From contig CASFYE010000044.1 in NCBI GenBank assembly GCA_949298925.1, positions 1-47,740 on the forward strand: a stretch of DNA of 47,740 nt, given 5' to 3'. The position numbers and the translations under genes are program-made. Below the pieces are notes generated by a model, which worked only from the letters and a program-made list of their open reading frames with translations, had not been told where the DNA came from and did no database searches. Positions 6,805 through 40,572 of this stretch are shown here, one piece after another. How positions within the stretch are numbered: the first letter of the stretch is position 1; the number at the start of each line of letters is the position of its first letter. The stretch comes from an uncultured Bacillota bacterium. Lineage in GTDB: Bacteria > Bacillota > Clostridia > Christensenellales > UBA1242.

Positions 6805-6833
6805 TTGAAAAATGCAAAAAAATGTGCTAAAAT
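6805..6833 (+). promoter_or_regulatory. near-consensus extended -10 promoter (TTGAAA-17-TGcTAAAAT)
   Basis: TTGAAA is at 6805-6810, followed by a 17-nt spacer ending in TGC, then TAAAAT at 6828-6833. The predicted +1 falls at about 6840-6842, which is the first base of the structured element at 6841. Confidence 0.6.
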
Positions 6834-6840
6834 AAAAATG

Positions 6841-6919
6841 GCCGAAGCCACTTTCACTGCCGTGAAAGTTGCAAAAACCCTTGCGGGTTTTTGCCCTCGC
6901 AAACGCGAGAGGCTTCGGT
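6841..6919 (+). ncRNA. structured element E1: 79-nt four-way junction (closing stem plus three hairpins), unknown family
   Basis: Hand-folded.
- P1: 6841-6849 pairs with 6911-6919 (8 WC pairs plus a terminal G-U).
- H1: 6850-6857/6862-6869, 8 bp, loop TGCC.
- H2: 6871-6880/6885-6894, 10 bp, loop TTGC.
- H3: 6896-6900/6905-6909, 5 bp, loop AAAC.
The junction linkers are 0-1 nt. Confidence 0.45.
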
Positions 6920-7006
6920 CCATTGACTGCGATCGATTTTGGTCGCAACAAAAAATTTAGGCAAAACGCAAGTAGAAAAAATAAAAATTAATAGGCGGAG
7001 GGAAAT

Positions 7007-8964: not shown

Positions 8965-11109
8965 ATGAAAAAGAAATGGATTTCAGTTTTAAGTTTGATT
9001 TTTGTGTTTGTTTTTGCAATCATGTTTTCTGGTTGCATGGGCGTTGACCCGGACAGACTTGACGAGCTTGAAGATCAACTCGAAAATGGTGAGATCACCG
9101 AAGACGAATTCAATGACGCTTTGCAAGAGGAGTCCGACGGCGTAAAGTTGGACGGCGTGCTTGTGCTTCGAAAGCCTCTTAGTTATGATTTTGACAACAA
9201 CGTTGTTGAAAGTGATTATTACAATTCCTTTGCAAGAGATGTGTTAAGAGGACTTTTCGCGACTTATGGTGTAACAAACAATGCAGACATAATATTAGAG
9301 AAACCAGACATTTTTGATTTGTTATTAACCGAAAACGAAGGGAATGAAGAACTAGAAGATTTAAAAGGTAGATATGACTCGAATAAAGACGACTTCGTAG
9401 GCTTTTATGACGCTATTCGTTATCAAATCACAAATGTTGAACCTGTAAAAATAACAATCACGGGTGTTAGTAGTGAAGTAGTGGATAATCCTGATGGCAA
9501 AATCTATAATGGATCAATCACCATTGACGGAATTTACTATTTTTATTCTTACAATGGAAATGTTTTGTCGTTAGAAGACGAGACTGGAACTCTTTACTCA
9601 AGCAGTGGAAATAGTATTAAAGTAAAAGATATTGAATATACCTTTTTGTTCAACACAGAAACGCTTGTGCTTACATTACAATCAGTCGAAAACATAGGCA
9701 CAAAAGTAACTACGGACGATAGTTATGCTTGGAATTGGAGTCTGCCGTATGACCAGGCAAGTTATGAAGCATGGATTTATGCGTATGGAAGTAAGACTTT
9801 AGATGGAAAGGTAGAAGCAACTTTTAACAACAAAGACGCAAATTTTAAATATAATTTTGAAACTTTAGAAAAGTATTATACAGGAATATTTGATAACATT
9901 GATACACCATATCCCTTTAATTCTGCGTTCTATCTCAACGATTTTGTCAATGAGGAGTATGTTACAGCGCTGGAATATGCGATCTATCGAATTGCAATCG
10001 GGTTGACACCAGCAGAGATGACGGTGAGTTATAATGAAACGGGGCTACCTATGCTTTCCGTTGATGGTTTTTCGTCTCAAACCGCACCAGAAGTAAAGAG
10101 CAGTGTTCAAGTTGCCCTTGAAAGCGCAAAGGAAGATTTTTACAAGCTCGGCACATATGTTGGGCTCACGTCAACAGACAAGCAGTTTATTGTGGACTTC
10201 ATTTTGGAAGAGATTATTGGCGAAACTGCATATTCAACCGAGCTTGCGCAAAACACCTTAAACTATGAGGTCATGGTCGAGGCGATAGTAAACTATGCAG
10301 GCACATTGACGACGACGGGCATGACGAGTTATGACGTCGACGAAGAGGGGGGAACGACTTCTGGTGAAGAGCAACAAGACGACGAACCGACATATGTTGG
10401 TGACGCGTTTACTGCGTCGGAGGTGGCACTTTTCCCTTACACAACATTCTTCTCGTCAGCGACATCAGACGATCCATTCGTAAACGTTGGAGGACCATTT
10501 GAATATCAAAGCTTTGTTTTGTTGCCATCGGACGAGCAAGTTGAGATTGGCGACATTTGGCTTGATATGAAATATGATGCTGGCAATGATGGAGACAGCA
10601 TAGTGACTGACGAAACACTTACGATGACGGTAATTTTAAGGTATGTCAAAGTGCAGACCGACGCGACAGGCAATGTGCTTAACAGGGAGTTAAAGGAGAT
10701 AAGGCAAAACATCACCTTAAAGGACGGACCTCACGGAGCAGGAGAGGAAGGATCGTATTTTGAATTTGAACTTGACGCGAAAGAATATTTCGGTGAAACT
10801 GTCAAGATAGGTAAGTTTGCCGTGCCAGATGTTCTTCAACCTGACAAAACGGAAGACAAGACAAACAACGTGGTTACCATTACGGGTGAAACGGATGCCA
10901 GAAAATATTATGAAGTTTTGGAGAGTGGCTTTAACAATGCAGGATCATTTGCAGTGCTAGACAGCGAGAGATTTAACTTTTCATATTTTGAAGTTGCGTT
11001 TGATGTTGAGAAAGAGCCAGGAAATAGGGATAAGAATTATGCGTTCTATTGTTCAATCTTAAACTTGATAGAACCACCAGAATATCCTAACGATCCTGTT
11101 TGGCAATAA
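8965..11109 (+). CDS. acidic lipoprotein (714 aa), unknown function
   Basis: The start was moved to the ATG at 8965 (MKKKWISVLSLIFVFVFAIMFSGC, lipobox FSGC). The ORF-track start at 8902 lies inside the upstream terminator. It contains a module (ITIDGIYYFYSYNG...TLVLTL) resembling repeats in the giant protein. Confidence 0.6.
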   Translation: MKKKWISVLSLIFVFVFAIMFSGCMGVDPDRLDELEDQLENGEITEDEFNDALQEESDGVKLDGVLVLRKPLSYDFDNNVVESDYYNSFARDVLRGLFATYGVTNNADIILEKPDIFDLLLTENEGNEELEDLKGRYDSNKDDFVGFYDAIRYQITNVEPVKITITGVSSEVVDNPDGKIYNGSITIDGIYYFYSYNGNVLSLEDETGTLYSSSGNSIKVKDIEYTFLFNTETLVLTLQSVENIGTKVTTDDSYAWNWSLPYDQASYEAWIYAYGSKTLDGKVEATFNNKDANFKYNFETLEKYYTGIFDNIDTPYPFNSAFYLNDFVNEEYVTALEYAIYRIAIGLTPAEMTVSYNETGLPMLSVDGFSSQTAPEVKSSVQVALESAKEDFYKLGTYVGLTSTDKQFIVDFILEEIIGETAYSTELAQNTLNYEVMVEAIVNYAGTLTTTGMTSYDVDEEGGTTSGEEQQDDEPTYVGDAFTASEVALFPYTTFFSSATSDDPFVNVGGPFEYQSFVLLPSDEQVEIGDIWLDMKYDAGNDGDSIVTDETLTMTVILRYVKVQTDATGNVLNRELKEIRQNITLKDGPHGAGEEGSYFEFELDAKEYFGETVKIGKFAVPDVLQPDKTEDKTNNVVTITGETDARKYYEVLESGFNNAGSFAVLDSERFNFSYFEVAFDVEKEPGNRDKNYAFYCSILNLIEPPEYPNDPVWQ

Positions 11110-11136: not shown

Positions 11137-11664
11137 ATGAAGCGAGAGCAAAAAACTCTCTTGCTTGAAAAAGAGGTCGAAACTAAAACTCAAATTGAAG
11201 TCAAAACAGACAAGCAAGTTGAAGCTGAAAAAACTTTTTTAAAGCAACAAAATATTGTTGTTGAAACCCCTAACTATGACCTTATACCAGAAATAACACC
11301 ACAAAAAAAGAAGAGAGTGTTAAAACTTGAAAAACTCGTTGAAAAAGAAACTCCAAAGAAGAAGAGAATGTCTTGGTTAAAACGAGTGGCACTTGCGCTA
11401 GGAATTGGTGTTACGATTGCCCTTAGCATTTTCACAGCAGTTGAGCTTTCCAACACGATCTCGGCTTACAATGTGGCGCAGAGTGAATATTCGGTCAATG
11501 TTGCAACGCTTATGCAAAAAATCGCCTCTGTCGATTCGGGAAACAAGATGGCCGAGCTTGTGGAGACCTTTCCTGATGAGGTGATGCGTCCAAGCGATTT
11601 TGAGGAGCAATCAAACTGGTTTGACAGATTATGCAATTTTTTATCGGGGGTAATTGGAGGTTGA
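11137..11664 (+). CDS. bitopic membrane protein, positional FtsL analogue (cell-division protein candidate)
   Basis: It has a Lys/Glu-rich cytoplasmic N-terminus, a single TM (VALALGIGVTIALSIFTAVEL) and a ~70-aa outside domain. It sits immediately upstream of the class B PBP, with its stop 3 nt before the PBP start, as ftsL does in dcw clusters. The call is positional only. Confidence 0.4.
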   Translation: MKREQKTLLLEKEVETKTQIEVKTDKQVEAEKTFLKQQNIVVETPNYDLIPEITPQKKKRVLKLEKLVEKETPKKKRMSWLKRVALALGIGVTIALSIFTAVELSNTISAYNVAQSEYSVNVATLMQKIASVDSGNKMAELVETFPDEVMRPSDFEEQSNWFDRLCNFLSGVIGG

Positions 11665-18764: not shown

Positions 18765-21700
18765 ATGAAACTAAAAGCACCAAAAACATGGCAAATGGTT
18801 TTGATATTCGTGACCATAATTTTTTTGGCAGTGGGCGGAGGCGTTTTGTACGTCTATTTAAATGATGGCTTCAAGCCAAAAGTTATTTATCCAGAAACTA
18901 TTGATGTGCAAGACTTAGACAATGTCTTAAATTCAACTAGGGCTCAATATGAAGCGACTGAGGATTTTCAATTGACGTTTACTTCTCAAACGGAAGGCGT
19001 CAACAGAAAGGGAATTACTCTTTCGTTTCCTTCGGGCATAGCGGTTACTAGAGATGCAGAAAACGGAACGATTTCCGACGGAGTAATTACAGTTCCAGAA
19101 AAAGTCACGCTTGGGCAAAGCTTTACCGTTTCACTAGTTAAACAAGCGTATGACAAAAACAACAATTTGATTGAAGATTTAAACGATTACAATGCGGAAG
19201 AAGACGGAGCCATTACTTACATAAACAAAGGTGGTGTTTCCAACCTTATCATAACTCCTGAAAGCAACACTGACTATAACAAACAAATCACAATTGCAGT
19301 TGACGTGCCTGTGCTTGAAGTAGAATTAAAATTTGTCGACATCACAACAGGTTTTGAATATGCTCAAGAAGATGGCGCAACCATAATACCAGAAGGCACA
19401 AATTTTGTTGCTAAGCCGATTTTTGTTCCACAGCAAAGCGCTTACATGTTCAGCGATGAAAAAAATTCCAACGTGAGCGCGCAGGACGTGCGTGAAAAAA
19501 GTGTTTACTACACTTTGGGGACAGGCGTCACAGGCATACAGTTAAATCAATCTGATGACGGTGTTTATTTCACTGCATTAGAAGAGGTTTCGCAAGGCAA
19601 CATCGTAAATGCGTTTGCTTTTTCTAGTTCAAAAGATGAACTGGACTTTTTGGCCCAAAACTCGACGTTAGATGGAGTTGCGCTTTACAATCAAGCAATC
19701 AGCTTTTTATCAGCCAGTGATTCGGCAATAAAAAGCGAGGGAAATTTGTCGGTTGTCGAGGCAAATGTTGGGTTGTTTAGCATACTGCAAAACTCTGTCA
19801 GCAACCCTTACGAAATGAGTGTTGACAAGCTGTTTACTATCTTAGCGGGCGGTGACAGTTCGAAAGGCGGTGCTTTGAGCGCCACTATTCAAGACGTTCA
19901 CGGTGCAGATCTTTCCGGCATGATCAGAAACATTGGAATGAGAGTTGTTTCAGCGACAGGAGCAAATGGAGAAAATCTCATTGGCAACATTGTCTTGCGT
20001 GGTGGAAGTGAAAGAGAGGCAAGCAATGGGAATACATATGTTTTGATAAATTCAAACGTTCGTGACTTAAATTTGGCATATTTTGAGTTGTCTTCAAACG
20101 TCGAGTGTGAGCTTCAGCTGGCAATAGCGCTCATCGTTCAGGACGAGGAAGGCTCTTACAATATTTTTGAAGAGGAAAAGACTTTATACGCAAAGGTTTC
20201 GACGCATCAAGAAGATGTCGTTTCATGGGATGCAAGTTGGCAGGACGTTGACGGCATCAACTTGAAGATCATCTACGAAAATGGCCAGCCAGTCCCAGCA
20301 CAATATGGGCAAAACCTGTTTGATGTTGCAAACGTCCCTTCATCAAACGTTTACCAAAGAAAGGTGGTTTTCGCATATGGTGAAAACATCGATGGCAAAA
20401 TAGAATATGACACTGTTGGCAAAGGGACTTATTCTGTAAACGGAAGTTCCACCGAGCTTTATCCTTTGGCGAGTGGCGAACTTATTGCAAATAAAGCCAC
20501 AACATTTTACATAGTGTTTGCCACTGTCAAAACAGACGCTTACAATCAGCCTGTGTTTAATGATGATGGCACGTATAAACTGATTCAAGTTTCGTCAGCT
20601 GTTGCGGTCAATGTTGAAAACAGTTTGCGTGGGATAAAAAATGTTGACATCGAAGTTGGAAACGGAGAAAAGTGGCTTAAATATAATGAAACAACACTTT
20701 CCGCTTACGCGATTCCATCTGGTTCAAACATAGTTGGCAACGTCATTGGCAATGACATTGTCATGACAATTCAAGTAGAAAATGGTGACGAAGAGCTGTT
20801 TATAGAAGAATTTAACAACGGCAACATCACCTTCTTCGCTTCCAAAGACGCAGGTGGCGATGGCGAAAAAATGACAAACATATTTAGGTTTTCATCGCCG
20901 ACTTCAAATGGGGCAGGGACTGGCGAAGTTTCGGTAAACATCGGCATTGAACCAAATTTAAAATTTGCTATTGAAACAGGTGAAAATTATTACATTTTTA
21001 TTGAATACGACAACTCAATTTCTACAGAAAGAAAGATTGCAAATATTGGCGGAGAGGAAATTCAAGATTATATAACGATTTATGATCAACAAACTAAAAC
21101 GATAGAAAGTGAATTAAAGGATAAAGTCCTCAACGTTACTCAAACATTACAGTCAGACGGCACAAGTGAGATAAGCATAACAGGATTGACTGGAACGGAA
21201 AGTTTAGACGAGTTAAATGCTTATTTTCAAGAATATAATGAGACTTATTATCCAAACGGAATAAAAACACTCGACCAATATGGCAGAGAGTTTGAAGGGG
21301 ATTACACAATTTCCTCATCAAACTCAACACTTGTTATGGCAAACAATCTTGACAAATCTTTAAGCTTTGGCAACGGAAGTGGAAATGCAACAGTTACAAT
21401 TAAGTCTGGCAGTGCCACTGTCCGCCTAACTCTTAATGTTACAAGCACAGGCGTTTCAAAAATTTGTGTGTTGGATCAAGGATACGCAGGCACCTCGTCA
21501 GTTTCTTATGTTTATACACCGACATCGGTAGGCGAAGGAAGTGCGGAGGTAGGCGAAGGTAGTGCGGAAATTAAGTTAAAAAACGAAGGCCCAACGAATC
21601 CAAGCACATTAGTAACTGACGGCATATTGACTGTTTATGTTGGGGACAAAATTTATAACTACGATAAATATAAAATAACTCTTGCACCAACATTTTTGTC

Positions 21701-24700
21701 AGAAGTTAATGACGATTTGTGGGACATGATTAGTTATAAAACCTCGTCTTCAATTGGTTGGTCTGCTGCAGGTGCAAAACCAGACAGTAGCACGGAAATT
21801 TATTCATTGCGTGTAAACAATCATTTTGGGAAAGACGTAACTTTGCTTTTCAATGCGCGTAACGACAACAACACATTAAATTTCACCTTTTCGTTTACCA
21901 TTAAAAAGACCGCTGAACTAGAAAGAAACAGTTTAAACGAAGTAAATTATGGTGGAGAAATCACGGGGGTAGAAGGTCACACAGACTCAAACTCAATAGG
22001 TGTTTATGCAGGGTTTGGAATCAACTTAAATGATGAGAATGTAGAAGTTACCAACTATCTTAAAGTGAAAAATGTTAATTGGGGTGCAGTTTTTGAAGAG
22101 GAATATTACATACATAGTGGCGGGGATATAAACAAAACTGAGGCCAATGCAATTGCTACAATAAAAAAAGGCGTGCTCACCTTTAATGATGTCACACAAC
22201 CGACCAATTACAATTTTACGTTGTATGCTGTTAATAAACCAAAAGATGGAACACGGGTTGGAAATTATTACGGCTATTTAATCGAACTTTCATTCACAGT
22301 TTATCCAAACTTAAAAATCAATCCTCAAAACGATTCCGAAATTAGCTTAGCAAGTATTGCTTCTGCTACCAATGGATATAGTTATAGCAATGTTTTTACA
22401 ATTGGAAGAATAACCACCTTAGCGCAAGAGACTGATTCATCTATTGGAACTGTGCCTTTAGATCCAAACAAAAACATAACCGCAGGTGGTTTGATAAGCA
22501 ATTATAAATTTGTTGATGAAAATGCAGGTGGGTTACAATATTTATCTTTAGATGGTAATAATATTGTTAGAACGGAAACCTATTTGTATTACGATAAAAA
22601 CACAACAGGGAAAGAAATCGTTTTATATGCGTATGACGCAAATGGTAATGTGGTCGCTTCAGAAACCTTCAACTTGACCCTTGGTTTAGAAATTAACGAT
22701 TTAAACGAGCTTTTAAAAACAACTGACAATAACAAGGCGATAGTTCGTGCTCAAAAATATGATGGCACACAAATGGCATTAATCACTCAAAACTCAATTG
22801 ATGTTGTGAGAGGTTGGGCAGATTCCGGTCTTACAGCGGAACTGATGGTGGGCGCAAACGGAAGCTTTTATCAACTTACAGGGACAACAGAGAAGAAGTA
22901 CACCATAAGCTTGAATCCAAACGGCCAAGCCATCCGTTGTGACAAAAACACTTATTTAAAATTTAACTTTTCTTCCGGTGAGCTTGATTATGCGACATGG
23001 GACGTTCCAGTCATATTGTCGCAGATAGGAAGCGATTTTCCTGGGGAAGACACAGAGAATAATTTTGATTTGTTTGACGTAATAAACAATGGCATTAAAA
23101 CATCTGTCATAGCTGGCGGAGCATATTCGCTGTTTGATTTAGCAGACATAACAGGTTCAAATATTTCTTTTACTTATTTGGTTGATGGAGAAATTTGCAC
23201 AGACTATGAAACTTCGGTGATAAGTTCGCTGGAAAACGGAATGCTAGTTTTGAAAAATCTTTCAAACAATTGTAAGGATTTGATCAATGGCACGTTGCCT
23301 TTAGAAATTCAAATAACGATGCAAAATGGCGTTTATTCTCAAACATTTGTTTTACATGTTTTGGTTAGCCCAAATGCGACACTTGACAAAGTAAACTATC
23401 CATATGATGGAGCGACGGCAGAATTTTTAACGGTTAAAGGGTCAAAACCAATCGTCTTAAGCGATCCGCACGATAATGGTGAAAAGCGTTTCCCAGACAC
23501 TGCCACTCCAACAGTAGAAGAAAATATAACAAGCACGTTGACACTTTCAGAGTCAAATTACGTAGGTAGCATAACAATAAATTCAAAAGACTACGACGTG
23601 CAATACAATGCCGAAGATGGCGGTTTAACACTGACAAAAGACGGAGAAAACATAAACGGCACCAATGGAAAAATTGTCGTAGAAGGGAAGCAATACACCT
23701 ATTCCTTCGCTGAAAGCACGTTAACTTTGAGTTTGATTGGATTAGGTGATTCAATCTACAGCATAAAACAATTCACAATCAATGGAAATTCATCAGCATA
23801 CGAGGGATTTATTTCTCTTGAAGGGGAAACTTTGACGATAGACGACCAAAGTGGAACCTTGCAAAATGCTACACTTGTTATAGAAAAAAGGTATTCAAAT
23901 TTCTTTGGAGAGTCGCTGGAATACACTTTCATAATCAACAGCACCGATGTTGAATATTTCTTGAATATTGCAAGTGAAACAAGTGGTGACACGGCTTCTG
24001 AGGAAGGCAACGATTGGGTTATAACTCTGGATCGCAACGAAACCAATCACCTATTCTCAATTACAACAAAACAACGAAGTGAGGATGGTGGCGAGAGCAA
24101 CGTTTTGCCAAACGAAGTCACAACAAAATTGGTTGAAGAAAGCAAAGAAGGCTATACATTTGATTTTGAAGATGTCATTGAAAATCCTAAGACTTTGACA
24201 ATTACAACGCCAGTCTTTGTCGAGGCAGACACGGTTATCGACTTGACTTTTGTTGTCAATGACGGACAAGCAGAAATAAAAGTGCGAGTCATCGTTCCAG
24301 CGACCGTGGAAATGGAATGGATCGCTGACACCTCATTACCAGGTGGCAGTGAGTATAGTGTGGCTAATTATTTGATTAAAAACTTGAATAAAGATGGGAC
24401 ATTTAATGATAAGGCATATGTAACTATAAATGACGTTACTTTTACATATGATGATTCTACAAATGCGAAGAAAGGCTACTTAGAATATGATATGAGCAAC
24501 CAAAAAGTTAAAGTTCAACCTATATATCAAAATATTGAACGAGCGACAATAAAAGTTGCATATGCTTATGTTGAAAACATTACTGTTGAAGGTAAAAGCT
24601 ATTTTGTAGTTTATGATATAACAAGCAATTCGTTGATCTTAAAACAGGTGATTAAAAGTAGTGAAGGTTCGATAACGATTGATGACAAAACTTACACAGT

Positions 24701-27700
24701 GGGCACAACGGAAAGCGGTGAGACAACATTGACATATTTAATTGATGGCACACCATCAGGAGAAGAAACATCAAAGACAGGGACAATCATCATAGGCGGT
24801 GCAACATACACCTACACTTACACTGAAACAAATAAAATTACTTTAAGTAAAACTGACGACGAAACTTTTACACGTGAGATTGATCTTTCTATCGCCTCAC
24901 CAATCGTAGAAATAGATAGTAAAACATACAACGTTGAATACATCTCTGACAGCAATTCGTTGACCTTAAAACTCGTGTTTACAAGCAGTCGTGGTTCAAT
25001 AATAATTGATGACAAAACTTACACAGTGGGCATGACGGAAAGCGGTGAGACAACCTTGACATATTCAATTGATGGCACATCATCAGATGGCGCAAATGCA
25101 AAAACAGGGACTATCACCATAGGCGATGAAAATTACACCTACAATTACGAGTCGTCTAAGTTGACATTAACTAAAGAAGGATCAGAACCAATTATCACAT
25201 ATATTCGGACAGGTTACACCGAAAAGACTTTTGACTTTGAACCAAACTTAACTACGGTGTCACAGGGTATAGGGGACGTTTTATCACGCGAAACTGAAAC
25301 AGTGTCTTTAAGAAATCTTTTGGAAAGTTCTGGGACGTCAATAAATTTGGGTGGGGTATATAGCCTTATTGCAGTCAATATTGATGGAAACTTATTTGAT
25401 ATTAGTGCTCCTGATAAAGGCGTGTACGTTCAAGATGACGATTTAAAGATCACTCCAGAATATGTTGGGCAAAACACTCCTACTAGCATAAAGTTTAAAC
25501 TTACTTATACAAAAGGTGATTACACATTTACTACAAACGAAATCGAATTGACGTTTACTATTGTTGCTGCCGCAACATACGAAGTGTCTTATCCAAATCC
25601 TTTTGGCACAACCAAGGATTTGGGTTATGAAAGTTATTCTAAGGAAATCATAGAAGATGATGGTGGTGGAATAAACCTAAACAATCATTTTGGTGGGACA
25701 GCCGATTTTGCACAAGCGGAAAGAATAAAATTTAGCGATGTAAGTCTTGGCGACACCATAACAGAAACTTCTAAGAAATTTTCTGAAATTGCGAACGGCG
25801 TAACCTATACAATCATATCGTTCAGCGGATTTACAAATGATGGGCAACAAATCACAAGTGCAGAAGGCATTCGTGATTCAGGTAAATGGGCAAGCGGAAT
25901 ATTTAAAGTTGCAGGAGGTGTCGAAGTCGCAGAGGGGGCGTCAGTCACTTTTGGTATAACTTATAAAGGAGTTACGGCGCAATACACAGTTTATTTCTTT
26001 AGCACTGTCATTTCCGCAAGCACCAACAACACAATAAACCATGTCACAATTGCTACAGAAAATTATGAAAACATCTATGCTGACAAAGGGGATATTTACG
26101 GCGACGAAGGGAAAACAAACATCTTCGCGAAAAACAGGCTTGTCGAACTTGGCATATTAAAAGACGGAGCCGAGGCGGGGTCTTTGCAAAAAATCTATGC
26201 AAGACCAGAGGGTAAAGATGACACAACAATGTATGAACAACTCGCATCGTTCGTCTTAACTCAAAGCATGATTGACAGAGGAGCCAACATCTTTGTAGAT
26301 ATTGGAATTTTAAATGGCAAGACAATCGGTGGCAAGCCAATTTCAACAGTAGTAGACAATTTACTTGGTGAAGGCTATGAGTTTGTTGTTGGCTCTATAA
26401 ATCAAAATGGCGAATTTGTTGGCTCTACTTCAATTCAATTCATTAGGCAGGCAAGCCGTGTTGAATACAAATACAGACTGTCAAATGGAAGCACACAGTT
26501 GATTAACAGCGAAACCTTAATTGTTTGTGAAGAAGAAAAACTGGCTGTAAATGAACCAAGCAAATTTGAAAATAATGAAACAGCGACCTTTAATGTCACT
26601 TACAAAATTACAGAGGGTGGTATAGAAAAAGGAACGATAACTTACAAACTTAAAAAAGTGCTTGACATCGAGGCACAATACGCTTGGTCATCGGCCAATA
26701 AAACAGTTATTGAAATCGAAACCAACAAAATCAACACCTACACAATCGTAAAAGAAATGGGAATTCGCCACCCATCGACTGGCGAAATGCTGTCGGCTGA
26801 CAATATTGGAAACGCCGAAATAGATTTAACTGTTGTAAACACTAAAGACAATACATTTGATTGGAACGATATTGATGGGGGGTGGCCAGATGGCGTTACG
26901 GAAAACGATTTTGTTTATCAAACGGAAGCTGGTGATGACTATTTAAGCTTTACACCTATCAAAAACAGCGAAGAAAAAATCTATGACTACTACTTGTTCG
27001 GTGAAGGAGCCGACAATGATGGAAGTTACGTCCTTTTAAAACTGAATTATATTGCAGGAGGCACAGACCAAACTTTCTATTTCGTAGTCAAGTTGATTCC
27101 TGATTACAACGTTACGATTGGAGGAGTGCAAGTGGCTGTTCCTGGGGTGGTTACTGACGGAGTGGCTACAAATGAGGAGAGCCCTTACAATTTCGTGCCA
27201 GACGGTGAAAGTAATTTCAATATTGCAACAAACAGTGATTCAATCGTATCCTTTGTTAGATCAAACTGGGACAGCAGTAACATTGCAAAAAGCTTGACTT
27301 ATAAGTTGACAGTGAAAGATGCAGGGAATGGCTACAATGAAGCAAGTAATATCGCAAAATTGAATATAGGTTCTACATGGAAAAAACAAGAAAATGCTCA
27401 GTCTGGTTCTGTTGCAGTCGGTTCAGGCGATGTCGCCGCTGTCGGCAACATTTACACATGGAAAAACGCTAGTGGATCAACGAGTGAACTAAAATTGGTG
27501 CCTTCATTAATCGCGTTTGGACAGAAGATGTATATGCTTGAAATAACCAACTCATGGGGATTTAAAATAGAGTTTTACTTCACGCTTTCCTCTCCAACAG
27601 CTCAAAATCCTGTCATCAGCACGGCTTATTCTGATGCAACATTTACTGAAGGTGAAAATTTTGACGTTGGCGTAATTTATGATAAGATTGTTGCAACACC

Positions 27701-29525
27701 AGTCATAGATGAAGAAGGCACAGCAACTGGAGAATATGACTTGACAATACAGAGAGACATCCTGCCGGAAGACAATAGTGGAGCAGTGAAGATGATCGTT
27801 GTTGACAATATTGCAACATGGGGCATAAACGCAGAGGCGCAAAATGTTGTCGGTGGAGAAGACAACAACATCAATAGCGGAGAAGATATTTATAACAATT
27901 ATATGGCTAGTACAGCCAACATGATTTATCAATACGTTACGATTGAAAGTGTTGGATTTAAATATCTTGATGAAAATTCAGAAAATGCTGAACCTGACGA
28001 AGCAGATTACGAATTAATTACAAGTTCTGATTTGAAATCATCGTGGCAAGGCATAACTTATACAGGAATAGGTAAGGGGGAAAACCCAGGGCGATTTACT
28101 GTTCCTAATTTGCCAGGTTGGTACTATGGAACAAATAGTAGCGTTCAAGTTGAAGTGCATGTAACGTTGCAGTATTCTAAGAACGGTGACACAGAAACTT
28201 GTGACATCAGCTTCCCAGCAACAGTAAGCAAACAATACAGCATTAGCACCGCGCAAAATGTTGTAATCGATGGGGAAGAATTTGCTTTAAGTGATTACAT
28301 AGTAGTGGTTAACGGAAACGGAACTAGCGGAAATGACATTATAACCCCAAGCTATTATGATGACACACTAGAGGTTACATTGCCAGCTGGTGGTCAGGCG
28401 ACAGTGAACGTTGAGATGACACGTAGCGGTGATGAAACATTTGAAGGTTCGAAAACGCTCAATAACACGTTACAATACAGGCCAGAAACCACCTACAACA
28501 GTTTGTCTGAAATATTAGGTATGACATTGCAACCTGACACCGATACTGTAAAAATAAAGATTACTGCTTCTGAAGGCACGTCAGATGATGAAGATTTCCG
28601 TGTGAGATATGGTGGCAGTGATATAAAAACAGATTGCTTAGGAGACGGAGGTTATCGAATCAGTTGGTCGGTTATTACACACGACACATTGTATATCGAA
28701 GATTCAGGAAGGTTTACAAACAATTATGCTACTGTGAATAAATCATATATCGTTAAAGTAAATGGCTTCTATTATCGCTACAATCAAGTTTACTGGTTGA
28801 CACGTTACTTCTATTCTCTCGACACTGGCCTCGGCGACACAACAATAAGACAAATTGTTGCAGATGCAGAAGGCTCAGGCATTCAATATAAAAACGGTGA
28901 CAACTGGTCCGATTATGACGGAACTTTAAAAGGCAACTTCAAAATACCTATAAGCGCATGGGCGAAAGACGTAAAAATCTATCAAGCAACTCAAAGCTCG
29001 GGGCAAGTGACAAATGGAACACTTGCAAGCTTGTCAGGTTTGTTTGAAGAAGAGTTTGATGTTACTTACACTTACAACGCTGGAAGTGAAGGAGTGTCAG
29101 CAAGTTGTGTTTTTAGTGGCGGAGATGGAATTAGTTTTGGAACTGTTAAGTATGAAAATGGAGTTGGAACGGTTACTATGACACTTGGAGATGAAACAAC
29201 CACCTACGATTTTAAAACAGATTCAAGCGGAAAGCTTATTTCAATAAATAGTCATGCCGTAGATGTTGCAAGTGGAGAAACATTCAGTTCGATTTTGCTT
29301 ACAAGTTCAATTTACTTCGAAGTAACTGCTGGCGTAGGAGATGTTTCAACAGCATATTTTGATGGAACAGATCTTTACACTGGTGATAATTACACCATTA
29401 ACAAGCAACAATATATTTTGGTTAACATCTATGTTAAAGCATCAGGCGGGCCAGACAAAACATTTGAAAGAAATGAAAAAGGCTATGACTATCGTTTGGG
29501 TTGGTTTAGAATTATCTTAGTTTAA
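18765..29525 (+). CDS. giant membrane-anchored surface protein (3586 aa), orphan
   Basis: This is an uninterrupted 10.8-kb ORF with a strong AAGGAGG RBS and an N-terminal signal-anchor (WQMVLIFVTIIFLAVGGGVLYVYL). The composition is Thr/Ser/Asn/Gly/Val-rich and beta-type with very few Cys. Internal repeats are present. I see no LPXTG or other known anchor. Confidence 0.8.
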   Translation: MKLKAPKTWQMVLIFVTIIFLAVGGGVLYVYLNDGFKPKVIYPETIDVQDLDNVLNSTRAQYEATEDFQLTFTSQTEGVNRKGITLSFPSGIAVTRDAENGTISDGVITVPEKVTLGQSFTVSLVKQAYDKNNNLIEDLNDYNAEEDGAITYINKGGVSNLIITPESNTDYNKQITIAVDVPVLEVELKFVDITTGFEYAQEDGATIIPEGTNFVAKPIFVPQQSAYMFSDEKNSNVSAQDVREKSVYYTLGTGVTGIQLNQSDDGVYFTALEEVSQGNIVNAFAFSSSKDELDFLAQNSTLDGVALYNQAISFLSASDSAIKSEGNLSVVEANVGLFSILQNSVSNPYEMSVDKLFTILAGGDSSKGGALSATIQDVHGADLSGMIRNIGMRVVSATGANGENLIGNIVLRGGSEREASNGNTYVLINSNVRDLNLAYFELSSNVECELQLAIALIVQDEEGSYNIFEEEKTLYAKVSTHQEDVVSWDASWQDVDGINLKIIYENGQPVPAQYGQNLFDVANVPSSNVYQRKVVFAYGENIDGKIEYDTVGKGTYSVNGSSTELYPLASGELIANKATTFYIVFATVKTDAYNQPVFNDDGTYKLIQVSSAVAVNVENSLRGIKNVDIEVGNGEKWLKYNETTLSAYAIPSGSNIVGNVIGNDIVMTIQVENGDEELFIEEFNNGNITFFASKDAGGDGEKMTNIFRFSSPTSNGAGTGEVSVNIGIEPNLKFAIETGENYYIFIEYDNSISTERKIANIGGEEIQDYITIYDQQTKTIESELKDKVLNVTQTLQSDGTSEISITGLTGTESLDELNAYFQEYNETYYPNGIKTLDQYGREFEGDYTISSSNSTLVMANNLDKSLSFGNGSGNATVTIKSGSATVRLTLNVTSTGVSKICVLDQGYAGTSSVSYVYTPTSVGEGSAEVGEGSAEIKLKNEGPTNPSTLVTDGILTVYVGDKIYNYDKYKITLAPTFLSEVNDDLWDMISYKTSSSIGWSAAGAKPDSSTEIYSLRVNNHFGKDVTLLFNARNDNNTLNFTFSFTIKKTAELERNSLNEVNYGGEITGVEGHTDSNSIGVYAGFGINLNDENVEVTNYLKVKNVNWGAVFEEEYYIHSGGDINKTEANAIATIKKGVLTFNDVTQPTNYNFTLYAVNKPKDGTRVGNYYGYLIELSFTVYPNLKINPQNDSEISLASIASATNGYSYSNVFTIGRITTLAQETDSSIGTVPLDPNKNITAGGLISNYKFVDENAGGLQYLSLDGNNIVRTETYLYYDKNTTGKEIVLYAYDANGNVVASETFNLTLGLEINDLNELLKTTDNNKAIVRAQKYDGTQMALITQNSIDVVRGWADSGLTAELMVGANGSFYQLTGTTEKKYTISLNPNGQAIRCDKNTYLKFNFSSGELDYATWDVPVILSQIGSDFPGEDTENNFDLFDVINNGIKTSVIAGGAYSLFDLADITGSNISFTYLVDGEICTDYETSVISSLENGMLVLKNLSNNCKDLINGTLPLEIQITMQNGVYSQTFVLHVLVSPNATLDKVNYPYDGATAEFLTVKGSKPIVLSDPHDNGEKRFPDTATPTVEENITSTLTLSESNYVGSITINSKDYDVQYNAEDGGLTLTKDGENINGTNGKIVVEGKQYTYSFAESTLTLSLIGLGDSIYSIKQFTINGNSSAYEGFISLEGETLTIDDQSGTLQNATLVIEKRYSNFFGESLEYTFIINSTDVEYFLNIASETSGDTASEEGNDWVITLDRNETNHLFSITTKQRSEDGGESNVLPNEVTTKLVEESKEGYTFDFEDVIENPKTLTITTPVFVEADTVIDLTFVVNDGQAEIKVRVIVPATVEMEWIADTSLPGGSEYSVANYLIKNLNKDGTFNDKAYVTINDVTFTYDDSTNAKKGYLEYDMSNQKVKVQPIYQNIERATIKVAYAYVENITVEGKSYFVVYDITSNSLILKQVIKSSEGSITIDDKTYTVGTTESGETTLTYLIDGTPSGEETSKTGTIIIGGATYTYTYTETNKITLSKTDDETFTREIDLSIASPIVEIDSKTYNVEYISDSNSLTLKLVFTSSRGSIIIDDKTYTVGMTESGETTLTYSIDGTSSDGANAKTGTITIGDENYTYNYESSKLTLTKEGSEPIITYIRTGYTEKTFDFEPNLTTVSQGIGDVLSRETETVSLRNLLESSGTSINLGGVYSLIAVNIDGNLFDISAPDKGVYVQDDDLKITPEYVGQNTPTSIKFKLTYTKGDYTFTTNEIELTFTIVAAATYEVSYPNPFGTTKDLGYESYSKEIIEDDGGGINLNNHFGGTADFAQAERIKFSDVSLGDTITETSKKFSEIANGVTYTIISFSGFTNDGQQITSAEGIRDSGKWASGIFKVAGGVEVAEGASVTFGITYKGVTAQYTVYFFSTVISASTNNTINHVTIATENYENIYADKGDIYGDEGKTNIFAKNRLVELGILKDGAEAGSLQKIYARPEGKDDTTMYEQLASFVLTQSMIDRGANIFVDIGILNGKTIGGKPISTVVDNLLGEGYEFVVGSINQNGEFVGSTSIQFIRQASRVEYKYRLSNGSTQLINSETLIVCEEEKLAVNEPSKFENNETATFNVTYKITEGGIEKGTITYKLKKVLDIEAQYAWSSANKTVIEIETNKINTYTIVKEMGIRHPSTGEMLSADNIGNAEIDLTVVNTKDNTFDWNDIDGGWPDGVTENDFVYQTEAGDDYLSFTPIKNSEEKIYDYYLFGEGADNDGSYVLLKLNYIAGGTDQTFYFVVKLIPDYNVTIGGVQVAVPGVVTDGVATNEESPYNFVPDGESNFNIATNSDSIVSFVRSNWDSSNIAKSLTYKLTVKDAGNGYNEASNIAKLNIGSTWKKQENAQSGSVAVGSGDVAAVGNIYTWKNASGSTSELKLVPSLIAFGQKMYMLEITNSWGFKIEFYFTLSSPTAQNPVISTAYSDATFTEGENFDVGVIYDKIVATPVIDEEGTATGEYDLTIQRDILPEDNSGAVKMIVVDNIATWGINAEAQNVVGGEDNNINSGEDIYNNYMASTANMIYQYVTIESVGFKYLDENSENAEPDEADYELITSSDLKSSWQGITYTGIGKGENPGRFTVPNLPGWYYGTNSSVQVEVHVTLQYSKNGDTETCDISFPATVSKQYSISTAQNVVIDGEEFALSDYIVVVNGNGTSGNDIITPSYYDDTLEVTLPAGGQATVNVEMTRSGDETFEGSKTLNNTLQYRPETTYNSLSEILGMTLQPDTDTVKIKITASEGTSDDEDFRVRYGGSDIKTDCLGDGGYRISWSVITHDTLYIEDSGRFTNNYATVNKSYIVKVNGFYYRYNQVYWLTRYFYSLDTGLGDTTIRQIVADAEGSGIQYKNGDNWSDYDGTLKGNFKIPISAWAKDVKIYQATQSSGQVTNGTLASLSGLFEEEFDVTYTYNAGSEGVSASCVFSGGDGISFGTVKYENGVGTVTMTLGDETTTYDFKTDSSGKLISINSHAVDVASGETFSSILLTSSIYFEVTAGVGDVSTAYFDGTDLYTGDNYTINKQQYILVNIYVKASGGPDKTFERNEKGYDYRLGWFRIILV
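21528..21569 (+). repeat. 21-nt tandem duplication (VGEGSAE x2)
   Basis: gtaggcgaaggaagtgcggag is followed directly by gtaggcgaaggtagtgcggaa, with 2 mismatches. Confidence 0.85.
24585..25238 (+). repeat. tandem duplication inside the giant gene, 327-nt (109-aa) period
   Basis: VEGKSYFVVYDITSNSLILK...ITIDDKTYTVGTTESGETTLTYLIDG... aligns with IDSKTYNVEYISDSNSLTLK...IIIDDKTYTVGMTESGETTLTYSIDG.... The near-identical nt cores start at 24678 and 25005, an offset of 327. Confidence 0.85.
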
Positions 29526-29528
29526 GCC

Positions 29529-29610
29529 ATGACAAAAGTGCCCGCATTACGCGGGCGCTTCGCCGAAAGGCAAAGCAAAACTTTTCGTTAGAAAAGGTTA
29601 CTTTTGTCAT
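29529..29610 (+). ncRNA. structured element E2: 82-nt four-way junction, same architecture as E1
   Basis: Hand-folded.
- P1: 29529-29539 pairs with 29600-29610, 11 bp.
- H1: 29540-29545/29551-29556, 6 bp, loop ATTAC.
- H2: 29557-29564/29569-29576, 8 positions with one C/A mismatch, loop GAAA.
- H3: 29581-29586/29591-29596, 6 bp, loop GTTA.
It starts 3 nt after the giant-gene stop and ends 21 nt before the cls start. Confidence 0.45.
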
Positions 29611-33821: not shown

Positions 33822-34982
33822 TTATCTTTGGTCGCTTATATTTGCCATACTGTTGTTTCTTTGCAAATCTGAAACAGAATCATAAGGAGCTGACGTTGTG
33901 GTTCCAGCTAAGAGCGCGATGTCCACAGCATTTGCAGGGCTTCCCCATGAGTTGCCAGAAAACTGCATGAGCGCTTGGTCAACAACCCAACCTCGTGTGT
34001 TAAAAACGACATTGTGAGTTATATATCCTGTTGAGTTTGGATTTAAATAACCTGCTTGTCGTAATGAGTAAAAAATGTTGCCATCTATCCAGCTGTTTTG
34101 TGTTGCTCCCTGTGTTACGACACCTCTATTCGTTACCCATGTGTCAGAGCTACCAGATTGTTCCGGTCCAAACAAGATGTTGTTTCTTATAATGTTGTTG
34201 TTGCCTCCAATTTGTATAAATTCAGTTGGGTAAGGGTTGTTGCTCGTAAACGTTAATCCATAAACTTCATTGCTATCACCACTTACTAGCATACCAACAA
34301 CATTTGATTGAAGCATTATTATAGAATTTGGTTTTCCTATAAGCGAAATTCCACTTTTGTTCAAATTTAAAGTTGTAGAAATGTCATATACTCCCTCTTC
34401 TACTATAATATATCCATTATCTTCAACTTGATTTATTGCATCTGAAATCGTGGGCAGAGGATTTGCTTGAGTACCATCTCCTCCAACATTGCCACTTCTT
34501 ACAAAAAGCAAAGAATTGTTGACCCCCAAAGTTCCAGTTGGCCCGGTTGGGCCTATCTCTCCAGTAGCACCTGTCGGTCCAGTCGGTCCCGTTGGACCGG
34601 TTGCACCAGTATCACCCGCAATACCGGCTGGTCCTGTTGCTCCTGTAGCTCCAGTAGCACCAGTAACACCGGTAGCGCCTGTCGGTCCAGTTGCTCCGAT
34701 TAAACCTTGCAAACCTCTCTCGCCAGTTGCACCAGTCGCACCTGTTGGACCTGGCAAACCGTTTTCTCCACTAGCTCCGGTAGGACCTGTTGCTCCAGTA
34801 GGACCAGTTGGTCCGGTCGGTCCCGTTGGACCGGTTGCACCAGCAAAACCTTGCAAACCTCTCTCGCCGGTTGCTCCGGTAGGACCTGTTGCTCCTGGTG
34901 GGCCTTGAATGCTTAATCCAGGGATAGTCTTTACTATTATTCTAGTTTGTGGGTATTTATAAAAATGGTTGCAAAAAAACAT
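33822..34982 (-). CDS. collagen-like triple-helix repeat protein with a C-terminal right-handed beta-helix (pectin-lyase-fold-like) domain
   Basis: It has a short N-terminus, 42 uninterrupted G-X-Y triplets (GPT/GAT rich), then [11 protein letters not shown]...WIDGNIFYS...[15 protein letters not shown], which is a parallel beta-helix repeat signature. An AGGAGG RBS precedes the start. Confidence 0.8.
34527..34904 (-). repeat. collagen G-X-Y coding repeat (42 triplets)
   Basis: A 9-nt periodic GGNCCNACN-type repeat with an internal duplication ([10 protein letters not shown] appears twice). It generates spurious long antisense ORFs. Confidence 0.9.
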
Positions 34983-36036: not shown

Positions 36037-36084
36037 AAAAAGAGAGATTAAGGACAAACCATTTTGAAACTAGCACAAAAAAAC

Positions 36085-36120
36085 AAAAGGAACTCTACAG
36101 ATAAAGTAAAGTTCCTTTTT
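36085..36120 (+). terminator. intrinsic terminator of the lipoprotein gene, nested in a longer inverted repeat (36037-36163)
   Basis: AAAAGGAACT (36085-36094) pairs with AGTTCCTTTT (36110-36119) around a 15-nt loop, followed by a T-run. The outer pairings are TTTTGAAACT (36062-36071)/AGTTTCAAAA (36126-36135) and AAAAAGAGAGA/TCTCTCTCTTTTT. Confidence 0.6.
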
Positions 36121-36166
36121 ATATTAGTTTCAAAACTAACAGAGCAACCTCTCTCTCTTTTTTATT

Positions 36167-36240
36167 TGGAGCAGGTAGCGGGAATCGGACCCGCGAATTG
36201 TGCTTGGGAAGCACACATTTTACCACTAAATTATACCTGC
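36167..36240 (-). tRNA. tRNA-Gly (anticodon CCC), CCA encoded, atypical T-loop
   Basis: Hand-folded. Acceptor GCAGGUA/UACCUGC, anticodon arm UGUGC-UUCCCAA-GCACA, T-arm GCGGG-UCCGAUU-CCCGC, discriminator U, CCA. The T-loop has C where the near-universal U55 is expected. Confidence 0.85.
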
Positions 36241-36258
36241 ATGGTTATGATTGTGCTT

Positions 36259-36287
36259 ATTATATCATGTTTTTTAATATTTTGCAA
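36259..36287 (-). promoter_or_regulatory. promoter of tRNA-Gly (TTGCAA-17-TATAAT)
   Basis: On the minus strand, TTGCAA corresponds to plus 36282-36287, followed by a 17-nt spacer, and TATAAT to plus 36259-36264. This is about 18 nt upstream of the tRNA 5' end. Confidence 0.6.
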
Positions 36288-36300
36288 GAAAAATAAGAGG

Positions 36301-36379
36301 GAGGACGGCGCTGTGCAGAACATGCACAGCACGCGCAAAAGCGCGTTGCAAATTTTTTTAAAATTTGCTTGCCGTCCTC
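36301..36379 (-). ncRNA. structured element E3: 79-nt four-way junction, same architecture as E1/E2 (strand uncertain)
   Basis: Hand-folded.
- P1: 36301-36309 pairs with 36371-36379, 9 bp.
- H1: 36310-36317/36323-36330, 8 bp, loop GAACA.
- H2: 36331-36336/36341-36346, 6 bp, loop AAAA.
- H3: 36348-36355/36361-36368, 8 bp, loop TTTTA.
All pairs are Watson-Crick. It lies 24 nt downstream of the uvrC stop (minus strand) and upstream of the tRNA-Gly promoter. Confidence 0.45.
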
Positions 36380-36403
36380 AGTTTAGTGTTATAATAAAAT
36401 TTA

Positions 36404-38218
36404 TCATAAATTATCCTTCTTAAAATGTTCAATGATTTGGTGAGCAAGAGCTTCGTGTATTCCTGGTAAAATACAAAGTTCTTCTATGCTGGCTTTTTTG
36501 ATTTGTTCAATAGAACCAAATGCATTTAACAATGTTTCAATTTTCTTTTTACCTAGTCCGCTTATCTCTTCTAACTCGCTGTGCGTTTGTGCTTTTGTTC
36601 TTACCTGCCTGTGAAAAGTAATTGCGAACCTATGTGCTTCATCTCTAATGCGCTGTAAAAGCTTTAATTCTGCACTTCCTGGTTTTAATAATATAGGATT
36701 TTCATGATGGGGCATATATACCTCTTCAATACGTTTAGCAAGTGCAATCATCGGTAAATTCATGTTGAACTCTTTTAAAACTTCTTGACAGGAAGACAAT
36801 TGACCTTTTCCACCATCGATGATAATTAAGTCCGGGGTGACTTTAAAGCTTTCACTTAATCCTTCTTTTAACCTTGCAAGTCTTCGCCCAAGTGCTTCTT
36901 TGAGTGAAGCAAAATCATTTGAGCCTTTTACATGTTTAATTTTAAATTTTCTATACTGATTCTTTGCTGGTTCTCCGTTAACAAAAACAACCATAGATGC
37001 GACTTTGTTTGTTCCGCTAATATGAGAGATGTCGTAACATTCCATTCTAATAGGAAGGGTCGGTAGATTTAGTGATGTTTTAAGTCTTTCCAGTGCTCCA
37101 ATCGTAGAAGCATACTTAATCTTGTTTTTTTCGATATGTTTTTCTAAAAATTCCTTAGCATTTTCATTTGCCATCTTTAACAAAGTCGAATTGATGCCAT
37201 GAGGATTGACAATCAATTTTGTCGTCTTTTTCCAAAAGGACAACAAAAGATCTTTGTCGTCTAAGTCGTGGCTTAAAATTATCTCTTCTGGCACGATCAT
37301 GTTTTCGTAATATTGTGTCAAAAAGTTAAACAAGGTTTGGTTTTCTTCTAGGCTGGCGTCATTTATTGTGTAATTCAACACTCCCAAAATTTTTCCCCCT
37401 CGCAATACCATGGAGGTAATGACACCATTCAGGCCATCGTTAACGTAAGCGAATACATCTTTGTTGACATTTTTAGGTAGATTTGCGACTACGCGCTGTT
37501 TTAACTTGTTTACCATTTTTAAACGCTCTCGATAGACTATTGCACTTTCAAAGTTTTCGTTATCTGATGCGATTTGCATTTTTTTATTTAAAATTTCTTC
37601 AATTTCTTCGTCATTTCCGCTTAAAAAATTGATAACCTTTTTAATTTTGTTTTGATATTCTAAATAATCAATTTTTTTTGTGCAAGGGGCAGAGCATAAC
37701 CCAAGTGAATAATTCAAACATTCGCGTTTTGCTTTTGACGTCTCGCTTATTTTTAAATTACAGGTTCGCAAGCCAAAAGCTGAATTTGCTGTTTTAACGA
37801 TTTCGCCGGCATTTAATCCAGCAAAATATGGCCCGAAATATTTCCAGCCAGGTTTGCCTACTTTCCTAACTACTTGAAGTTTAGGAAAGGGATCGTTCAT
37901 GTTGATAGCTATATAAGGGAAGGTCTTGCTGTCTTTTAATAAAATGTTGTAATGAGGTTGATATTTTTTAATAAGATTGTTTTCAAGTGCGAGCGCGTCC
38001 CTTTCTGAAATTGTGATAAAATATTCAAAATCATCTATGTTTTCTACCATAGCTTGAACCTTGCTCGGTTTAGGAGATGATCTAAAATATTGTGAAACTC
38101 TATTTTTTAAATTTTTTGCTTTTCCAACATAAATGACAATGCCATCTTTGTTTTTCATTACATAGACGCCACTTTTTGTTGGGAGAGCAGTTAGTTTACT
38201 TTTTATTCTGTCGTTCAT
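36404..38218 (-). CDS. uvrC: excinuclease ABC subunit C
   Basis: It has an N-terminal GIY-YIG domain (GVYVMKNKDGIVIYVGKAKNLKNRVSQY), a UVR domain, an RNase H-like endonuclease domain and a C-terminal HhH2. Length is 604 aa. Confidence 0.92.
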   Translation of the reverse strand: MNDRIKSKLTALPTKSGVYVMKNKDGIVIYVGKAKNLKNRVSQYFRSSPKPSKVQAMVENIDDFEYFITISERDALALENNLIKKYQPHYNILLKDSKTFPYIAINMNDPFPKLQVVRKVGKPGWKYFGPYFAGLNAGEIVKTANSAFGLRTCNLKISETSKAKRECLNYSLGLCSAPCTKKIDYLEYQNKIKKVINFLSGNDEEIEEILNKKMQIASDNENFESAIVYRERLKMVNKLKQRVVANLPKNVNKDVFAYVNDGLNGVITSMVLRGGKILGVLNYTINDASLEENQTLFNFLTQYYENMIVPEEIILSHDLDDKDLLLSFWKKTTKLIVNPHGINSTLLKMANENAKEFLEKHIEKNKIKYASTIGALERLKTSLNLPTLPIRMECYDISHISGTNKVASMVVFVNGEPAKNQYRKFKIKHVKGSNDFASLKEALGRRLARLKEGLSESFKVTPDLIIIDGGKGQLSSCQEVLKEFNMNLPMIALAKRIEEVYMPHHENPILLKPGSAELKLLQRIRDEAHRFAITFHRQVRTKAQTHSELEEISGLGKKKIETLLNAFGSIEQIKKASIEELCILPGIHEALAHQIIEHFKKDNL

Positions 38219-40217: not shown

Positions 40218-40305
40218 GTAAACAAAAGAATTGAAATAAAAATTGGTCATTTTGAGTTTAAAAGCACAAAAAAAAGATGGCATTTTGTCAAGCAAAAGTG
40301 CCAAC

Positions 40306-40432
40306 TTTTCCACACAAAAGTTATCCACAATTCCACACGCAAATATTTATGCAAAAGCGCTTATTTTTATACATAATGCCGACTTTTGATACAAGCAACG
40401 CCCTTTTTGGGCAAGTTATCCACATTTCCACA
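40306..40432 (+). promoter_or_regulatory. cluster of five co-oriented DnaA-box-like 9-mers (two perfect TTATCCACA)
   Basis: The five boxes are:
- TTTTCCACA at 40306-40314
- TTATCCACA at 40321-40329
- AATTCCACA at 40329-40337
- TTATCCACA at 40416-40424
- ATTTCCACA at 40424-40432
All lie on the plus strand within a 402-bp AT-rich intergenic region. Confidence 0.65.
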
Positions 40433-40572
40433 GTAAAAATATGACATTTTTGTTTTTTTTATTAATTTAGAGCGGTTGCTTATCTGAATTAAGATAAGAT
40501 TATTCGTTATGAAATTTTTATATGACTTTTTCGACTATCGTATATTTAAAAATTTTCGCGATTTTTGCATAA

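Follow-up and report, generated by a model that had tools for sequence, protein, structure and literature searches.

In an intrinsic terminator, about 7-9 U in a row follow a GC-rich stem within 0-2 nt. Protection of the upstream mRNA from 3' exonucleases is generally attributed to REP elements, and structures located at the first nucleotide of a transcript block RNase J1. The attC sites of integrons carry their R''/R' core sites in a single imperfect hairpin with extrahelical bases. Bacterial mRNAs are shielded from 3' exonucleases by structured 3' ends, and in B. subtilis such ends are especially resistant (PMC3997798). Perfect stems can be both created and repaired by template switching (PMC8794818). 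The element analysed here, E3, is located between uvrC and a tRNA-Gly gene in a stretch of 47,740 nucleotides from an uncultured Bacillota bacterium (contig CASFYE010000044.1), hereafter called the window. Its closing stem surrounds 61 nt folded into three hairpins, and this branched 'loop' is far outside the range of canonical terminators.

Structure and surroundings of E3

E3 is a GC-rich block of 79 bases (51% GC vs 37% GC for the window) lying in AT-rich spacer DNA. A four-way junction was both the minimum free energy and the centroid structure predicted by RNAfold, and it forms on both strands, with -49.7 kcal/mol (z -8.0) for the RNA of the plus strand and -49.2 kcal/mol (z -8.7) for that of the minus strand. 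None of 200 dinucleotide shuffles folded equally well. With DNA parameters the values were -35.3 kcal/mol and z -8.8. The 9-bp closing stem and the hairpins of 8, 6 and 9 bp comprise 32 pairs, all of them Watson-Crick, and the junction linkers on the uvrC-sense strand measure 2, 1, 0 and 0 nt (Table 1). The first-pass annotation, made from the sequence alone, had already described the GC-rich block, the four-way junction, the 9-bp stem, the hairpins of 8 and 6 bp and the exclusive Watson-Crick pairing; its last hairpin, given as 8 bp, has 9 bp and a 3-nt loop.

Table 1. Position and layout of the junction elements of the window and of the features surrounding E3.
Feature	Position	Strand	Description
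E1	6838..6923	+	closing stem 10 bp, hairpins 8, 10 and 5 bp; between rsmH and a 623-aa ORF
E2	29529..29610	+	closing stem 11 bp, hairpins 6, 8 and 9 bp with two mismatches
tRNA-Gly (CCC)	36167..36240	-	next gene downstream of E3
Predicted tRNA-Gly promoter	36259..36287	-	TTGCAA-17-TGnTATAAT, 10/12 matches (promoter scan), rated strong
T-rich tail after E3	36286..36300	-	CCTCTTATTTTTCTT; uvrC-sense; reaches into the tRNA-Gly -35 box
E3	36301..36379		layout on the + strand: GAGGACGGC / GCTGTGCA-gaaca-TGCACAGC / ACGCGC-aaaa-GCGCGT / t / GCAAATTTT-ttt-AAAATTTGC / tt / GCCGTCCTC
E3 closing stem, arm proximal to the tRNA-Gly promoter	36301..36309	-	3' arm on the uvrC-sense strand, GCCGTCCTC; on the + strand GAGGACGGC; pairs with 36371-36379
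E3 hairpin, 8 bp, 5-nt loop	36310..36330	-	GCTGTGCA / TGCACAGC
E3 hairpin, 6 bp, 4-nt loop	36331..36346	-	ACGCGC / GCGCGT
E3 hairpin, 9 bp, 3-nt loop	36348..36368	-	GCAAATTTT / AAAATTTGC
E3 closing stem, uvrC-proximal arm	36371..36379	-	5' arm on the - strand, GAGGACGGC
uvrC	36404..38218	-	Pfam UvrC domains; stop 24 nt before E3

The sequence and the Pfam domains bear out the order that had been read on the minus strand, namely uvrC, E3 and a T-rich tract, and the -35 box of the tRNA-Gly promoter follows 13 nt downstream of E3. The proposal that E3 could serve as a 3'-end structure therefore stands as the best-supported reading, given the nearby uvrC stop, the T-tract kept in the sister species and the tRNA-Gly promoter. 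Canonical termination at E3, on the other hand, is uncertain, because C-rich bases part the T-tract from the stem. The closing stem is followed by CCUCUUAUUUUUCUU, of which the 8 nt opening 1 nt past the stem hold 5 T, the proximal part being interrupted by C, and the U-run begins 5-8 nt past the stem, after the C-rich bases. E3 was not called in a terminator scan of the window. Ordinary terminators, each a hairpin and a T-run, are found downstream of uvrC in several relatives. At window 36085-36119, between a 157-aa ORF (plus strand) and tRNA-Gly (minus strand), a hairpin flanked by A and T runs also resembles an ordinary terminator, which indicates that canonical terminators are used by the host organism as well. 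The 119-aa ORF covering the region (36064-36423), called spurious in the first-pass annotation, gave no match to Pfam and overlaps the tRNA-Gly gene, which is on the other strand. E3 matches no Rfam family either; the first-pass annotation expected an automated annotation to miss it.

Excess of junctions over chance

Four-way junctions were searched with a descriptor in which three hairpins, none shorter than 5 bp, are enclosed by a closing stem of 6 bp or more and no linker exceeds 4 nt. E1, E2 and E3 were the sole GC-rich, non-tRNA matches in the window, and no match was obtained in 20 Markov shuffles of it, so that the three same-shaped elements at gene boundaries reported by the first-pass annotation were recovered, in excess over shuffled sequence. 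A fourth match, at 1787-1865, was discarded as an A/T low-complexity artefact that folds no better than its shuffles (z -0.5 and +0.3). When two or four enclosed hairpins were required instead of three, no strong match was found. A sliding RNAfold scan similarly gave E1, E2 and E3 as the strongest three local folds across the whole window. Strong folds that lie in a coding region are produced by the GC-rich repeats of a collagen-triple-helix-repeat protein (window 33822-34982, minus strand).

The census was extended with uniform thresholds to two further sequence sets. There are 3 junctions in the 48 kb of the window, 4 (3 of them independent) in 212 kb of uvrC loci from relatives, and 2 in 864 kb of rsmH loci from more distant Clostridia. 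The last set derives from a metagenome scan with RsmH, which gave only relatives at 65% identity or less and was used as a negative-control census, not as a source of orthologues. Junction elements are thus abundant in the window lineage and rare in distant Clostridia.

E3 is absent from all catalogues searched, that is Rfam 15 and plasmid, phage and viral collections. Only two tRNAs of the whole window pass the Rfam 15 gathering threshold, and relaxed searches with the E1, E2 and E3 regions returned only chance-level matches. There was no match to E3 in the plasmid and phage collections. In viral contigs, scanned for exact 18-mers, there were three matches that lack the junction structure and were judged to be due to chance.

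No sequence is common to E1, E2 and E3. A hexamer, GCAAAA/TTTTGC, seemed to be shared by all elements; it ranks in the window's top 25 hexamers and was dropped as compositional. R1, a covariance model built for E1 and searched against 1.04 Mb of related loci, retrieved only E1 orthologues, none of them beyond 74% identity. Of the genome-wide family that had been suggested, the common shape is therefore retained and a common sequence is not, and this 'family' is a convergence of shape rather than a product of common ancestry.

Conservation of E3 and of related junctions

The UvrC relatives are all metagenome-assembled genomes of uncultured gut Clostridia, some labelled Christensenellaceae or Candidatus Scatosoma, the closest by UvrC being CALVOH010000015 (89% identity). 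E3 was found at the same site in every contig of the sister species (~90% UvrC identity; loci L001/L114-117, L030, L031 and L118-120), where the tRNA-Gly promoter is also conserved and the T-rich tail is kept as CCCCTCTATTTTTCTT or CCCATCTATTTTTCTT. In an alignment of the 5 distinct orthologue sequences, 29 of the 32 pairs are invariant and one pair changes from G-C to A-T. Eight of the nine closing-stem pairs do not vary, the outermost one being G-C, A.C or A-T, and the stem of the 9-bp hairpin is identical in all orthologues. The 8-bp hairpin conserves its stem and has the loop TGTTC in the window vs AAAAAA or AAAATAA in the sister species; the loop of the 6-bp hairpin is TTTT in the window vs GCTT or GCCT there. 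Over these 5 sequences, variable columns amount to 4/64 in stems vs 12/17 in internal loops and linkers (Fisher p = 1e-7) and 16/23 in the flanks (Fisher p = 7e-9). With nearly fixed stems and variable loops, the pairing of E3 is under purifying selection while the loops are left free, and E3 is selected in the two closest species that carry it. Free loops argue against an aptamer or a loop-mediated trans-acting RNA.

E3 is absent from the species at 81% UvrC identity (L032/L033), in which tRNA-Gly starts 32 nt after the uvrC stop, and the element is dispensable there. Among the 29 uvrC loci of the genome scan, it was present only in L001, which belongs to the sister species.

E1 opens where transcription from a strong, conserved promoter (TTGAAA-17-TGnTAAAAT, window 6805-6833, plus strand) is predicted to start, and it is kept, with loop changes, in relatives at 98, 87 and 85% RsmH identity. 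At one of its closing-stem pairs, L122 and L124 have A-T, the window has G.T and L121 has G-C. In L126 (74% RsmH identity) the closing stem (GGCCGAAGC) and hairpin 3 persist, and hairpins 1 and 2 have been replaced with the four-way shape kept, giving an element of 73% GC. This correspondence was taken from the match of the covariance model R1 to L126 (29.5 bits, E = 7e-5), a MAFFT alignment having been set aside as not structure-aware. The L126 junction is located 2 nt after the rsmH stop and upstream of the promoter, and is followed by TTGCTTGTTTT. In the window lineage the promoter directly precedes E1, and in L126 it lies ~190 nt downstream of the homologous junction; element and promoter have therefore swapped their order within one intergenic region. 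The promoter-like site itself (GTTGAAAAA ... TGTG[A/C]TAAAAT) is conserved at window 6805-6833 (plus strand), L122 ~10975-11008 and L126 ~11165-11200. A small hairpin, TGCGATCGATTTTGGTCGCA, follows E1 (window 6925-6950, plus strand) and is conserved in the relatives at 85-98% identity.

E2 extends from 3 nt past the stop of a 3586-aa ORF to 21 nt before the cls start, and its junction is confined to the window species. The same site contains two tandem hairpins without a closing stem in a relative at 91% Cls identity, a 29-nt unstructured spacer at 87% and a small canonical terminator at 79%. The 3586-aa ORF occupies window 18765-29525 (plus strand), and no Pfam match is on record for its counterpart in L128.

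Further independent junctions were found in L013/L014, L002, L054 and L111. The junctions of L013 and L014 are orthologous and are distinguished by a single compensatory change from C-G to A-T and by loop and linker changes. The L013 junction (2625-2775), located between a divergently transcribed gene and uvrC, is nested in an outer stem and followed by a 10-bp hairpin, and the region of 201 nt folds with -107 kcal/mol (z -11.7). The L054 junction starts on the stop codon of the ORF preceding rsmH, and the L002 junction adjoins DnaA-box-like repeats. Most junction elements begin 0-24 nt past a stop codon, between transcription units. T-rich tails on the sense strand were seen for E3 and L126, whereas E2, L013, L002 and L054 lack a T-tail on both strands and that of E1 in the window is on the antisense strand only; termination cannot therefore be the shared function.

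In L002 the conserved pair of DnaA-box-like motifs is found at 650-760, and the four-way junction starts right after the second box. The window contains a cluster of DnaA-box-like 9-mers at 40290-40440 (minus strand), including two perfect TGTGGATAA, between a UvrD/PcrA-like helicase gene and hisS, with gyrA/gyrB nearby. An Rfam search upstream of hisS revealed no T-box. The right end of the window carries gyrA and gyrB in opposite orientation, and in L122, L124 and L126 (1-3000) gidA-gidB-parA-parB lie just upstream of the region matching the left end of the window, so that two origin-proximal gene sets, in opposite orientation, face each other within ~60 kb. A link to a replication origin was considered and rejected, since GC skew tracks gene orientation and no origin signal was found inside the window. 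In relatives, a KwaA (Kiwa defence) gene adjoins gyrB (L030/L031/L118 1-400; L032 4467-5039).

Candidate functions and comparison with known systems

We tentatively prefer, at somewhat less than even confidence, to regard the junction elements as sense-strand 3'-UTR or intercistronic RNA structures, E3 being a branched cap that acts like a terminator or blocks exonucleases and insulates the tRNA-Gly promoter. A sense-strand RNA role is favoured because of the positions after stop codons, the T-rich tails of E3 and L126, the terminators present in relatives at the E3 and E2 sites, and the resistance of structured 3' ends (PMC3997798). If uvrC is transcribed through E3, the three GC-clamped hairpins would fold first and the GC-rich closing stem would then shut just ahead of the U-rich stretch, resulting in a very stable, fully stacked four-way junction that would end the uvrC message. 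Such a branched, terminator-like structure could stop or slow the RNA polymerase, might block 3'-to-5' exonucleases and thereby shield the end of the uvrC mRNA, and could keep read-through out of the nearby tRNA-Gly promoter. E3 would then belong among lineage-specific, same-shaped but non-homologous elements at transcription-unit boundaries, of which E1 may be a 5'-terminal cap in the window lineage. The all-Watson-Crick stems of E3 probably arose by inverted duplication (template switching) and selection on pairing would subsequently have maintained them; the perfection of the stems and the gradual assembly seen at the E2 site agree with such an origin. However, a simple hairpin would do the proposed job, and the recurring three-hairpin shape is unexplained by this RNA-boundary role. 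The absence of E3 from the species at 81% UvrC identity also speaks against it.

The non-Watson-Crick pairs of the junction elements, tallied by hand in six cases plus one L002 case, bear on the strand at which the constraint acts. By gene sense, 2 of the 7 are G.U and 5 are A.C on the sense strand, a split that is not significant in so small a sample and is not as a sense-strand RNA constraint predicts; by absolute window strand, the six cases on window-oriented loci divide about 3 vs 3. G.U pairs are almost absent from the junction elements, which fits a both-strand or DNA constraint as well as an RNA one. The attempt to assign a strand from G.T vs A.C mismatches was thus given up, as 2 vs 5 by gene sense identifies none, and because of this missing polarity a role at the DNA level stays in play, somewhat unlikely though we consider it. 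The nested palindromes would in that case form hairpins or a junction on single-stranded DNA, or cruciforms under supercoiling, and would bind a junction or bend protein, absorb supercoils or simply be tolerated products of template switching, which is an established source of perfect inverted repeats (PMC8794818). The exclusively Watson-Crick pairing of E3 and its equal folding on both strands and as DNA are in line with this proposal, as are the short loops (3-5 nt, GAA-type in L054 and L013), the mixed contexts of the elements (after stops, after a promoter, between divergent genes and beside the DnaA-box-like repeats of L002) and the apparent assembly of E2 from simpler hairpins of a close relative. 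Neutral by-products, however, would not give stems varying ten times less than loops and flanks, and a closing stem with arms 60 nt apart extrudes poorly from duplex DNA. The preference for sites just after stops is more natural for an RNA role, and no candidate binding protein was identified.

Clearly unlikely is the use by this clade of uncultured gut Clostridia of perfect four-way junctions as shape-defined, sequence-independent punctuation, read by a junction-specific factor on RNA or on single-stranded or supercoiled DNA. Such a factor would explain the recurrence of three hairpins at six or more unrelated loci, the perfect complementarity on both strands and the free loops.

It is quite improbable that E3 is an independent small RNA gene, on either strand, expressed from its own promoter as a stable RNA of ~80-115 nt. 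Two promoter-like sites precede it on the minus strand, TTGAAC-18-TATGAT, which ends at 36403 and was reported by the promoter scan, and the TATAAC hexamer noticed in the first-pass annotation, which does lie 8 nt upstream of E3 but lacks a -35 partner and went unreported in the scan. As judged by eye, both are weak and not kept in the sister species. The T-rich tail could end such a transcript, and the start of E1 exactly at the predicted start site of its promoter would suit a small RNA, but the L126 homologue of E1 lies upstream of that promoter and not after it. Furthermore, the loops, through which a trans-acting RNA makes its contacts, are the least conserved parts of E3, and no Rfam match was found.

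Punctuation by a cloverleaf-shaped RNA cut by RNase P or RNase Z between uvrC and its neighbour gene is highly improbable. The junction elements are tRNA-sized (77-92 nt) with a four-helix layout, the sense-strand linkers of E3 loosely recall those of a tRNA, and E3 adjoins a real tRNA gene; however, ARAGORN reported only the two true tRNAs of the window, the Rfam tRNA model did not detect the element even at E <= 10, and the stems of 6-13 bp and loops of 3-5 nt lack D or T loop motifs, with linker patterns that vary among elements. Hardly credible either is the relic of a small MITE- or REP-like mobile element with the closing stem as terminal inverted repeats: the GC-rich block in AT-rich DNA, the inverted termini, the presence or absence between close species and the position of the E1 homologue across the conserved promoter in L126 would suit it, but neither the window nor the 1.04 Mb of related loci holds a second copy of any element's sequence, no target-site duplication or flanking direct repeat was seen by eye at E1, E2 or E3, plasmids, phages and viral contigs gave no match, and the stems are under purifying selection at a fixed orthologous site.

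If the junctions do end or protect messages, some bacteria would build transcript boundaries from branched structures that would escape terminator predictors relying on hairpins as well as RNA searches relying on families, and operon maps would be wrong at these places for many uncultured gut Clostridia. Non-homologous elements converging on one shape, together with the build-up at the E2 site, could offer a tractable case of complex structures arising from inverted duplication and being fixed by selection. Should a junction-reading factor exist, the junctions would represent a new kind of genomic signal, an element class defined by shape alone.

Two known systems were rejected as models of the junction elements. 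The closing stems GAGGACGGC, GGCCGAAGCC and ATGACAAAAGT lack the core sites of an integron attC (RYYYAAC ... GTTRRRY), the structure has branches and perfect pairing, and the elements are flanked by housekeeping genes. A riboswitch or aptamer, which has conserved unpaired nucleotides in its junctions or loops, does not agree with junction linkers of 0-2 nt and with loops and linkers as the most variable parts. Like a tRNA or a tRNA-like cloverleaf, E3 has four helices meeting at a junction in ~80 nt; unlike them it has stems that are long and perfect, loops that are not conserved and hardly any nucleotides in the junction. The GC clusters and double-hairpin elements of fungal mitochondria are likewise GC-rich palindromes in AT-rich intergenic DNA whose presence varies among close relatives (PMC4478555), but they are mobile, repeated families of shared sequence, and neither repetition nor mobility was detected for the junction elements.

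Among the boundary structures, the 5'-terminal stabilisers of Firmicutes resemble E1, with whose first nucleotide a promoter-driven transcript is predicted to start; the known ones are single hairpins, however, and the likeness applies to E1 only, E3 being at a 3' end. REP and BIME sequences, such as the malE-malF intercistronic stabiliser, are stable extragenic palindromes between co-directional genes as well. They differ in being imperfect single hairpins of ~35 bp that form repeated families of hundreds of copies with an associated transposase, whereas the junction elements, within the only 48 kb of this genome that are covered, are single-copy, unrelated in sequence, perfectly paired and four-armed. 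Intrinsic terminators are matched by the GC-rich stem of E3 just before a T-rich tract and by its position soon past a stop codon and ahead of the next promoter, and several relatives carry ordinary terminators at the E3 site. In contrast to the short loop of 3-8 nt of such terminators, the 'loop' of E3 is an insert of three hairpins, its T-run is offset by C-rich bases, and most of the sister elements have no T-tail. E3 thus resembles the terminators or stabilisers known from such boundaries, and there is a modest chance that it is something categorically new.
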